Counted from the stretch's first letter, positions 31,718 to 53,456 are shown. The stretch is 64,000 bases of DNA from Escherichia coli (GCF_050920415.1 NZ_CP169309.1), one strand, 5' to 3'. Made by a program: numbers and translations. The notes: generated by a model from the sequence alone, not told the origin.

Positions 31718-31890
31718 AAAGTTCTTTTGTGTTGCATTGCTGGCGTAAATGTCAGCAATGCAGCATTTCCTCACGATTCTCCTTTGACGATCGCACTTTT
31801 TGCTCGTTATGATGGCGTCGCTAGCCTCAGTAAATCCTTACTCCGGCGGTGCGCAACCCGTGCGCGTGAACCACTATCTGAATGCTCATC

Positions 31891-32825: not shown

Positions 32826-33108
32826 GTAGGCAGGATAAGGCGTTTACGCCGCATCAGGCATTCGGAGCACAATGCCTGATGCGATGCTTGCGCATCTTAT
32901 CAGGCCTACAAACGTGACGCGTCCGTAGGCAGGATAAGGCGTTCACGCCGCATCCGGCATTCGGAGCACAATGCCTGATGCGATGCTTGCGCATCTTATC
33001 AGGCCTACAAACGTGACGCGTCCGTAGGCAGGATAAGGCGTTCACGCCGCATCCGGCATTCGGTGCACGATGCCTGATGCGATGCTTCTATTTGCATCAG
33101 GCATCCAG
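32826..33108. repeat. BIME: tandem array of REP units (three near-identical ~98-bp repeats) between pbpG and dld
   Basis: Unit 'ggcaggataaggcgttcacgccgcatccggcattcggagcacaatgcctgatgcgatgcttgcgcatcttatcaggcctacaaacgtgacgcgtccgta' recurs at ~32829, ~32927 and ~33025. Confidence 0.75.
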
Positions 33109-51269: not shown

Positions 51270-52358
51270 TCACGGCAGGCGGTGGCGAGCTTGATAATAA
51301 GCCTGCCAGTGAGCTTCTTTATGTGTAGCGACACGTTGTTCGAAGTAACGGCGCAGACGTGCGCGATCTTCTTCGTTATCTTTGACGATGGTTCCGGCAA
51401 TACAGTCCACCAGGTCGGCTGGCTCCCCCGCGCGATTCGCTAAAAACCAGGCGCGGACGCCCACAGCGTGGGCCACGTTCACGGCTTCAGCGGTGGACAT
51501 AATCGCTGTCAGTGTATCCATTGACGTTTTCTTTTCGCCGTTGGCACGCAGATCGCGGAAGGTGCGTACCAGTAACTCAAGTACCGCGTCAGGCACTTTA
51601 TGCGGAATACCGCTATGGGCCAACAAACGCGCCGAAGCACTGGCGACCAGTTCCAGCTCCTGAGCAAAATCCATAATCGGAAAGACAGTTTCAAAGTCGA
51701 ATCGGCGTTTTAGTGCCGCGCTCATTTCATTAACGCCGCGATCGCGGGTATTGGCGGTGGCAATAATATTAAAGCCTTCCCGCGCATAGAGCTGACTGGC
51801 TTCACCAGTGAGTTCCGGCACCGTCATAACCCTGTCAGAAAGCATACCTAACAGACAGTCTTGTACTTCCAGTGGTGTACGCGTTATCTCTTCAAAACGG
51901 ACAATTTTGCCGTCGCGCATTCCTTGGTAGAGCGGGGCAGGGACCAGCGCTTCCGTTGACGGACCATGATTAATAAGCAGGGCGTAGTTCCAGCCGTACT
52001 TGATTTGATCTTCGGTGGTAGATGCGCCGCCCTGGATAGTTAACCCAGCATCGCCGCTAATAGCGGTTGCCAGTAATTCAGACAGGAGAGATTTTGCGGT
52101 GCCAGGTTCCCCCACCAACATCAAACCGCGCCCGGTAGCAAGAGTGACTAACATGCGTTCGACAGCGGAGGGACTAATCACGACTTTACGGCTGATATTT
52201 TGCGCGCTATCGCCAAGAATAAAAGAACGGGCCGCAGGCAAACTTAACTGCCAACCGGGCGGGCAAGGTGCGTTATCATTTTGCTTTAATTTTGCCAGTT
52301 CATCGGCGTATAACACAGCGGCAGGCGGACGCTGCAGATGATTATTCTGCGGTGACAT
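51270..52358 (-). CDS. yehL: MoxR-type AAA+ ATPase, 362 aa
   Basis: Walker A 'GEPGTAKS', AAA_5-like architecture. Confidence 0.85.
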   Translation of the reverse strand: MSPQNNHLQRPPAAVLYADELAKLKQNDNAPCPPGWQLSLPAARSFILGDSAQNISRKVVISPSAVERMLVTLATGRGLMLVGEPGTAKSLLSELLATAISGDAGLTIQGGASTTEDQIKYGWNYALLINHGPSTEALVPAPLYQGMRDGKIVRFEEITRTPLEVQDCLLGMLSDRVMTVPELTGEASQLYAREGFNIIATANTRDRGVNEMSAALKRRFDFETVFPIMDFAQELELVASASARLLAHSGIPHKVPDAVLELLVRTFRDLRANGEKKTSMDTLTAIMSTAEAVNVAHAVGVRAWFLANRAGEPADLVDCIAGTIVKDNEEDRARLRRYFEQRVATHKEAHWQAYYQARHRLP

Positions 52359-52467
52359 ATATTCATCCCTGAAATGTATTAATCAAATAAACGATATTTT
52401 ACGCGCAATAAATGTTTGGCGCATTAGTTGTTTGAGCGGAAAATATCTGGAAAGCAATCACAGTAAA

Positions 52468-52551
52468 TAAAAAAACCTGCTGGTGAGGCAGGTTCTTTTA
52501 TTTACTACTTTCAGGCCTAACACCACGGCCTGTGCAACATCGTGTTCCAAC
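52468..52551 (-). ncRNA. Candidate cis-encoded/divergent antitoxin sRNA (OrzO-like) with sigma70-like promoter and intrinsic terminator
   Basis: Minus-strand -35 TTGCAA (52586-52581), 17-bp spacer, -10 TATAAT (52563-52558); minus-strand terminator stem aacctgc/gcaggtt (52474-52494) followed by a T-run on that strand. The 5' part of the predicted RNA is complementary to a 20-nt segment (52698-52717) in the leader of the downstream toxin ORF (19/20 match to plus-strand 52532-52551). Ends are estimates. Confidence 0.4.
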
Positions 52552-52789
52552 GAACGAATTATAACCATCGGTGGACCCCGTTGCAATTAAGATAATGAGA
52601 TTTATAATCCTGACTGTTGGGACGTTGCGCCGGATCGAACCCATTTCAAGTCCTGGCTACCGGACGGGTGGTGCCGCAGGTAGTGCCCTGATCCGGAGTG
52701 CAACATCGTGGTCCAACATACGTAAACCAGTATCGACAGGCAGTGTAAGGGTAAGATGCTGGTGTTGCGCTCCTTAATAAGGAGAGCGG

Positions 52790-52879
52790 ATGGACACGCT
52801 GACACAAAAGTTAACCGTGCTCATTGCCGTACTGGAGTTATTAGTGGCTCTGTTACGGCTGATTGATTTGTTGAAGTAA
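52790..52879 (+). CDS. zorO: Type I toxin-like small hydrophobic peptide, 29 aa (MDTLTQKLTVLIAVLELLVALLRLIDLLK), ZorO-like
   Basis: Not in ORF track; hand-translated. GGAGAG Shine-Dalgarno 4 nt upstream; single amphipathic/hydrophobic helix ending in Lys, like TisB/ZorO class toxins; long structured 5' leader with plus-strand -10 TATAAT at 52613-52618. Gene symbol assigned from memory of the O157:H7 zor-orz locus, not from a search. Confidence 0.55.
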   Translation: MDTLTQKLTVLIAVLELLVALLRLIDLLK

Positions 52880-52932
52880 CGGGCAAATTGAAACGCATCT
52901 AAGGGGGAATACCGTCTCCCTCTTTAATAAAG

Positions 52933-53136
52933 CTATACTCGTCATAATTCAAGTTGCATGTGCTGCGACTGCGTGTTATTCGGCCCATCCATGGACCTCA
53001 CCCCTTACGGGGCCGCTGCAAGTAGCGTTCAAATCCGCTCCATGCGGATTTGTCGTTCACCCCAGTCACTTACTTTAGTAAGCTCCTGGGGATTCACTCG
53101 CTTATCGCCTTCCTGCAACTTGAATTATTTAGAGTA
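52933..53136. repeat. ERIC (enterobacterial repetitive intergenic consensus) element, long variant
   Basis: Contains reverse complement of the ERIC core 'gtgaatccccaggagcttactaaagtaagtgactgggg' flanked by the terminal inverted repeats 'aagttgcatgtgctgcg ... ttcctgcaacttgaattatttagagt'. Confidence 0.65.
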
Positions 53137-53138
53137 TA

Positions 53139-53456
53139 TTATTCTATTTCTTGGTTGAATATATTCTGTAGTTCACGATTAAAAATAGCGATTACAGTTT
53201 CAGGTGATTCACCTCGTAATTTTCGCTCATCAATAAATTCATCTCTTATATAAATCAACGCATCATTTATTAGCGGGTCGGCATCATCTCTATCACGTTG
53301 ATGAAATGTTGGACGTAGCCGGAATCGTTCCTGTCGATAGACGGAACCTGTAAATAATTCAGAGCATTTATGGATCTCAAGTCTGAAGGAAAACGGATCT
53401 TCAGGTACAGGGACTTCATAATCATAAGTAGCGACCAGCTCTTTTTGCACGATCAT
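53139..53456 (-). CDS. yehK: Small uncharacterised protein, 105 aa
   Basis: ORF of expected size in conserved position between yehL locus and yehI. Confidence 0.65.
   Translation of the reverse strand: MIVQKELVATYDYEVPVPEDPFSFRLEIHKCSELFTGSVYRQERFRLRPTFHQRDRDDADPLINDALIYIRDEFIDERKLRGESPETVIAIFNRELQNIFNQEIE

Follow-up and report, generated by a model that had tools for sequence, protein, structure and literature searches.

The zor-orz modules of Escherichia coli were described in 2010 (PMC2887945) and dissected in 2014 (PMC3919570) and 2017 (PMC5397157). In E. coli O157:H7 EDL933 the toxin genes z3289 and z3290 were described as lying "between yehI and yehL," the Z3289 and Z3290 peptides were both found to be toxic, and northern blots revealed two sRNAs of about 85 nt (PMC2887945). 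The EDL933 transcripts have been mapped (PMC2887945, PMC5397157). ZorO acts at the inner membrane, which it depolarises and damages, and it lowers ATP (PMC6669753, PMC9860968). No kanamycin phenotype was seen with one chromosomal copy (PMC9860968). The Orz antitoxin acts via its 5' end and promotes RNase III-dependent, Hfq-independent decay (PMC3919570; PMC5397157), and the rescue experiments were done with OrzO and zorO (PMC3919570, PMC2887945). Specificity has been assigned to a nucleotide triplet, V1, which is GAA in OrzO and ACG in OrzP, and OrzP is unable to repress zorO (PMC3919570). Under an experimentally derived rule, repression requires either 15 or more continuous pairs or, with one mismatch, 17 or more discontinuous ones (PMC3919570, PMC11264685). 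The pairing site has been placed 73-91 nt (PMC3919570) or 72-92 nt (PMC2887945) upstream of the toxin start codon. Furthermore, occlusion of the zorO ribosome-binding site (RBS) was demonstrated experimentally by structure probing (PMC5397157).

We analysed a 64,000-nucleotide stretch of E. coli DNA (GCF_050920415.1, NZ_CP169309.1), referred to here as the window. An earlier note on this DNA had proposed a type I toxin-antitoxin architecture with a divergent, trans-pairing sRNA; the Rfam match, the ZorO-identical peptide, the chromosomal position, and the pairing site all agree with that proposal. Taken together, our data indicate that the locus is almost certainly an intact single-copy zor-orz type I toxin-antitoxin module of E. 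coli, its toxicity and expression being taken from homology (Table 1). We found no sequence evidence against the zor-orz explanation. Both flanking genes lie on the minus strand; one encodes a 362-aa AAA+ ATPase and ends at 52358, and the other encodes 105 aa and lies at 53139-53456. A single genome in the E. coli collection, MFDS1022581, is 100% identical over 52359-52932, and its annotation names the flanking genes yehL and yehK, with the DUF4132 gene yehI next to yehK. The position of the locus relative to yehI, yehK, and yehL is concordant between the annotations of MFDS1022581 and O157, and in O157 the same interval between yehL and yehK holds the syntenic zorP-orzP / zorO-orzO tandem. 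A second zor-orz copy was found in the 64-kb window neither by an Rfam search nor by a 20-mer search of its whole length. RefSeq annotation has no feature within 52359-52932.

Table 1. Coordinates of the zor-orz locus and its adjoining element in the window, with the basis of each assignment.
Feature	Position	Strand	Basis or remark
yehL-yehK intergenic region with zor-orz locus	52359-52932		gene calls, annotation of relatives
orz antitoxin sRNA, OrzP specificity type, about 83-86 nt	52466..52551	-	Rfam; promoter and terminator bounds
orz promoter TTGCAA-17-TATAAT	52586..52558	-	promoter scan, 10/12 consensus matches
orz seed, sRNA 5' 20 nt (V1 triplet ACG, nt 9-11)	52532..52551	-	repeat search, pairing
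orz intrinsic terminator, long hairpin then U-run, 20-pair stem	52507..52461	-	terminator scan
zor promoter TTGCAA-16-TATAAT	52581-52608	+	promoter scan
zor 5' UTR, 174 nt	52616-52789	+	start G52616 inferred from published 174-nt UTR length
Orz pairing site in zor leader	52698-52717	+	19/20 pairs, pattern 6(1)13
RBS-sequestering stem GCGCTCCTTA / TAAGGAGAGC	52767-52787	+	inverted repeat; folds
zor toxin ORF, 29 aa, MDTLTQKLTVLIAVLELLVALLRLIDLLK	52790-52879	+	ORF call; identical to published ZorO
terminator-like hairpin and T-rich tail, end of zor mRNA	52903-52929	+	terminator scan; function inferred
ERIC/IRU element, directly downstream of zor terminator	52934-53138		25-nt terminal inverted arms, 88% complementary

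The identity of the element is established first by its sRNA gene. Rfam assigns it to the OrzO-P RNA antitoxin family (RF02083) with 98.9 bits (gathering score 60), covering the full model (1-76) at 52469-52544 on the minus strand, and this match is the single one in the whole 64-kb window. The strong minus-strand promoter, the intrinsic terminator, and the RNA of approximately 85 nt that the earlier note had delimited were all recovered. The terminator hairpin is the 3' hairpin of the Rfam model and is also present in the minimum free energy fold. The 5' end of the sRNA is GUUGGAACACGAUGUUGCAC, and transcription probably starts at G52551, a position that lies 6 nt after the -10 hexamer and that would place V1 = ACG at nt 9-11 as published for OrzP. 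Divergent promoters with TTGCAA (-35) and TATAAT (-10) were found on both strands, the same hexamers as in Table 3 of PMC11264685, where they are conserved in >99% of loci (PMC11264685). The -35 hexamer of the zor promoter is the palindrome TTGCAA at 52581-52586, and the same six bases serve as the orz -35 hexamer on the other strand.

The orz terminator is a near-perfect palindrome with A-runs and T-runs on both sides (52474-52494 on the plus strand, 52461-52507 on the minus strand), with the result that the terminator scan detects it on either strand. The palindrome also yields a weak "shadow" OrzO-P match on the plus strand with 26.8 bits. On the minus strand, the terminator further separates orz transcription from the yehL start codon, which lies about 100 nt downstream. 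Weak Rfam E-value matches to Thr_leader, AaHKsRNA22, Sphinx_2, and plus-strand OrzO-P were set aside, all being far below their gathering scores and attributable to chance or to the terminator.

On the plus strand, the 29-codon ORF with a good Shine-Dalgarno sequence is present where it had been reported, preceded by an AAGGAG ribosome-binding site at 52779-52784, 5 nt before the ATG. The earlier note had suggested ZorO for the peptide, and the match is exact: the 29 residues are letter-for-letter those given for ZorO in the Methods section of PMC6669753. Its hydropathy is high (GRAVY 1.40; best 19-residue window 2.5). A search of NCBIfam with the 29-aa peptide returned no family even at E values up to 1; this is no argument against ZorO identity because the identity rests on the exact match to a published sequence. 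In a comparison of 14 ORF copies drawn from 11 genomes, one of which is the window (identical to L001), five of the seven variable ORF sites are synonymous, a bias that is consistent with selection on the peptide. The terminator-like hairpin at the end of the zor mRNA is kept in both O157 copies. Overlapping alternative ORFs (36 aa at 52756-52866, 68 aa at 52571-52777, and several on the minus strand) were rejected, being without a Shine-Dalgarno sequence or a published counterpart. As a separate observation, the second zor copy of UTME-13 (L011 2541-2630) encodes an L21M variant, MDTLTQKLTVLIAVLELLVAMLRLIDLLK, and the substitution falls within the ALLRL motif reported to be necessary for toxicity (PMC6669753).

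The leader of the toxin mRNA follows the published anatomy closely. The plus-strand TATAAT that had been proposed to drive the toxin lies within a complete promoter, and the leader, previously estimated at ~170 nt, measures 174 nt when transcription is started at G52616. With +1 at this position, the published RBS coordinates (+164 to +169) coincide with the AAGGAG at 52779-52784 (PMC5397157). Furthermore, the published EAP/standby region (+73 to +102) falls at 52688-52717, and the Orz pairing site is its 3' end. The stem that sequesters the RBS appears in predicted folds of the full-length and delta-28 leaders alike. By homology, the zor leader may be processed to the more translatable delta-28 form, with a 5' end at about 52644. 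A conserved GGAGTG standby-like motif is present at 52695-52700; this motif was needed for full toxicity according to a 2024 study (PMC11264685).

We found a direct repeat between 52532-52556 and 52698-52722, with 88% identity over 25 nt and 19 of 20 positions identical over the first 20. Since the sRNA is read from the opposite strand, its 5' end is complementary to the toxin leader. The complementarity that the earlier note had put at 19/20 is thus borne out, and the site lies 73-92 nt upstream of the ATG, in keeping with the published distances. The 6(1)13 pattern comprises 19 pairs and passes the discontinuous rule of at least 17, while its longest continuous run, 13 nt, fails the 15-nt rule; repression would therefore rely on the discontinuous rule. 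The interruption is an A-G mismatch at nt 7 of the sRNA, which is conserved in all P-type loci.

We also determined the energy and specificity of this pairing. The predicted seed-leader duplex has an energy of -32.7 kcal/mol at 52697-52718, compared to a mean of -16.0 kcal/mol (sd 2.3) for shuffled seeds, none of which reached the observed value (0 of 2000). The duplex of full-length sRNA with full-length mRNA was artificially extended and gave a modest z-score of -3.3, and the seed-only test was used instead. Of all sites in the window other than the gene of the sRNA itself, the leader is the one to which the seed is predicted to bind best.

A generic dispersed repeat, for example one related to REP or ERIC sequences, could in principle account for the 20-nt match and make the complementarity between sRNA and leader incidental, a concern that the earlier note had itself raised in advance and to which the ERIC element adjoining the locus downstream lends some plausibility. 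However, the 20-mer lies outside the ERIC element, and with up to three mismatches allowed, just two occurrences were found in 64 kb, where 0.01 would be expected; none of 100 shuffled sequences contained two matches. Moreover, in other strains the sequences at the two positions change in concert from one locus type to the next (see below). The two-site count rejects a generic repeat family within the window, and we give practically no credence to an incidental match; the complementarity is best read as the pairing of Orz with the zor leader.

The ERIC repeat noted earlier beside the locus is real, and an exact 20-nt ERIC core, GTGAATCCCCAGGAGCTTAC, is found at 53078-53097 on the minus strand. 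At megablast stringency, 601 genomes contained at least 80% of the element, with as many as 4 occurrences in one genome. O157 has just the two outer ERIC arms and lacks about 145 nt between them, which makes this site polymorphic for the element or for its central part. Elsewhere in the window, Rfam reports two adjacent matches to naRNA4 (CssrE) at 32829-32906 and 32928-33005 on the plus strand (76.9 and 81.8 bits), a family that we take to be derived from REP repeats. A Peptidase-S11 RNA motif was found at 31806-31886 on the plus strand (72.8 bits; gathering score 34.8), and it presumably represents the leader of a gene for a D-Ala-D-Ala peptidase.

The question arises whether the toxin mRNA is the principal target of the sRNA. 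Orphan OrzP is conserved and expressed in strains that lack the toxin (PMC11264685), and the orz copy of K-12 scores 99.9 bits; both observations would fit an Orz that mainly regulates other mRNAs in trans, with antitoxin activity being secondary. Against this, the window holds no other strong target, the next best site reaching -23.5 kcal/mol compared to -32.7 kcal/mol for the leader. The seed also covaries with its cognate leader, and the zor-orz literature cited here reports no Orz target other than the toxin mRNAs. We therefore regard a mainly non-toxin role as unlikely and favour Orz acting as the antitoxin of the zor mRNA.

We found that the locus does not belong wholly to either of the two characterised subtypes. 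The intergenic region is 780 bp here and 1,240 bp in O157, where it holds two tandem pairs, both with Rfam OrzO-P matches. By the V1 definition, the O157 pair adjacent to yehL is zorP-orzP (peptide T3S) and the one adjacent to yehK is zorO-orzO. From yehL to about 52722 the window tracks the O157 P copy almost base for base; the V1 triplet of its sRNA is ACG at nt 9-11, not the GAA of OrzO, and its leader site is zorP-type. From codon 3 onwards, however, the window tracks the O157 O copy: residue 3 is Thr as in ZorO, not the Ser of the T3S variant, and the O copy is also matched at the informative synonymous sites, in the 3' UTR, and in the downstream flank. Read at the level of sequence, the locus is a single-copy mosaic that joins a putative P-type RNA interface to the ZorO peptide. 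The earlier description of a ZorO-like locus therefore holds for the peptide and the 3' end of the gene, but not for the RNA interface, which is of the OrzP/zorP type.

The same combination of P-type seed and ZorO peptide was found in all five of the other single-copy P-type strains sampled (MFDS1022581, MEC2025-PR, EC16, EC32, and uk_P46212). The mosaic would fit an unequal crossover that collapsed a tandem, and an ancestral single copy is equally possible. A broader proposal is that the common single-copy form arose by recombinational collapse of a zorP-zorO tandem, with a crossover in the stretch common to both copies, at about 52718-52795, that re-coupled OrzP specificity to ZorO, and that Orz in these strains and in orz-only strains may also regulate other mRNAs. 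We consider this combined proposal doubtful. Among the sampled single-copy strains (L005-L009), yehK is flagged as frameshifted in EC32, uk_P46212, APEC O1, and EC21GDE043; yehI is frameshifted also in APEC O1, and yehL in EC16.

We compared pairing types across 11 genomes and observed three. The P type, with V1 = ACG, comprises the window, K-12, and the left copy of O157; the O type, with V1 = GAA, is the right copy of O157; and a third type, with V1 = GCC, was found in APEC O1, EC21GDE043, and GPEC1185. In each type the 5' end of the sRNA and its own leader change together such that 19 of 20 pairs are kept. Cognate duplexes have energies of about -30 kcal/mol, compared to -14 to -25 kcal/mol for non-cognate combinations. 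This covariation of sRNA and target across all three types is a direct observation; it would fit the failure of OrzP on zorO and the suggestion that such differences keep cross-talk from arising (PMC3919570; PMC11264685). The three types represent a natural experiment on the avoidance of cross-talk in tandem type I modules. The third-type leader site is GTGCAACATGGCGACTCAAC (L008 1073-1092, L009 1073-1092, and L010 2281-2300); in GPEC1185 it belongs to the second copy. The peptides of the third-type loci are ZorO and not the A20S variant. The third type may correspond to the zorQ/orzQ of PMC11264685.

The earlier note had described the locus as absent from the K-12 arrangement, which is correct for the toxin and incorrect for the antitoxin. 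In K-12 MT102 the yehL-yehK spacer (L003 3001-3306) is 306 bp long and retains the orz gene, both promoters, and approximately the first 40 nt of the leader. The deletion begins at about leader position +40 and extends to the distal ERIC arm, removing the pairing site, the ORF, and the terminator. This orphan antitoxin has been published as OrzPmg, and its transcript was mapped in MG1655 (PMC11264685). In a survey of 2,212 genomes, 3% had neither zor nor orz, about 30% had orz only, 25% had one full pair, and 42% had two full pairs (PMC11264685). Our megablast search found some match to the segment in 5,232 of 5,426 complete E. coli genomes and at least 80% of the segment in 3,392 of them, in 1-4 places per genome, which agrees in outline with the survey.

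Since toxin loss with retention of orz affects about 30% of E. coli genomes, K-12 included (PMC11264685), the locus analysed here could be viewed as a decaying remnant of the same kind, in which the sRNA is expressed and the toxin gene is non-functional. Pseudogene flags on neighbouring genes point in the same direction; some strains carry them on yehK, and individual strains on yehL or yehI. In the window, by contrast, no element is disrupted, from the promoter hexamers and the full 174-nt leader with its pairing site and RBS to the 29-codon ORF and the terminator, and the peptide is identical to the toxic ZorO. Decay of the locus is thus very improbable, and we retain the reading of an intact module. 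The locus is presumably expressed in this strain.

The likely mode of action can be drawn from the O pair of EDL933, from which the steps that follow are taken; toxicity, rescue, RNase III dependence, the delta-28 form, and the standby site are carried over by homology. The plus strand would give rise to an mRNA of ~315 nt whose 174-nt structured leader hides the RBS in a stem, such that the full-length mRNA is expected to be poorly translated. Loss of the first 28 nt would open the upstream EAP region, a probable ribosome standby site, and promote translation of the 29-residue peptide. The minus strand would produce an sRNA of ~85 nt from a promoter whose -35 hexamer is also that of the toxin promoter. 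This sRNA, Orz, is predicted to bind the 3' part of the EAP region with its 5' end, blocking ribosome standby and translation and leading to RNase III-dependent decay of the mRNA without a need for Hfq. The OrzP-type interface presumably works in the same manner as the tested OrzO-type one. When produced, the peptide would insert into the inner membrane, and its overproduction would be expected to cause depolarisation and membrane damage.

As a discovery, the locus matters little, the module having a curated Rfam family. Its value lies in calibration, given that a two-RNA regulatory module was correctly reconstructed from raw sequence alone. The analysis further points to an annotation gap: RefSeq/PGAP annotates zor and orz, whether as CDS or as ncRNA, in none of the 30 genomes listed, such that zor-orz loci are invisible in standard annotation.

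Among described type I systems, tisB-istR-1 and shoB-ohsC resemble zor-orz in architecture: in each, a divergent trans-pairing sRNA binds via its 5' end far upstream in a long structured leader (PMC5397157, PMC2887945), and processing of the leader is needed to expose a ribosome standby site. Their sequences are unrelated to that of zor-orz. Compared to tisB, zor-orz is under no LexA/SOS control and has no upstream tisA-like ORF, and full-length zorO mRNA is still translatable, unlike the +1 tisAB transcript (PMC5397157).

Within the zor-orz family, the OrzPmg locus of K-12 MG1655 lies at the same site next to yehL, and its orz gene, both promoters, and ~40 nt of leader are about 95% identical to the window. 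The pairing site, ORF, and terminator are lacking in K-12, whereas the window has all three. The zorP-orzP pair of O157:H7 EDL933 (z3290 / sRNA-2; the left-hand O157 copy) is identical to the window in the 5' 20 nt of its sRNA and in its leader target (V1 = ACG, 6(1)13), and shares the same flank next to yehL. It differs in that ZorP carries Ser3 while the window peptide carries Thr3, and the window has no second tandem pair. The experimentally characterised zorO-orzO pair (EDL933 z3289 / sRNA-1) has the same peptide, architecture, and promoter hexamers as the window, as well as the same 174-nt leader with a sequestered AAGGAG, the same position of the pairing site, and the same 3' end next to yehK. 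The difference lies in V1, which is GAA in OrzO and ACG in the window, and predicted cross-duplexes between the two reach -17 to -21 kcal/mol compared to about -30 kcal/mol for cognate ones. The zor-orz module is already known, and the anatomy of the locus described here is that of the published family without departure.
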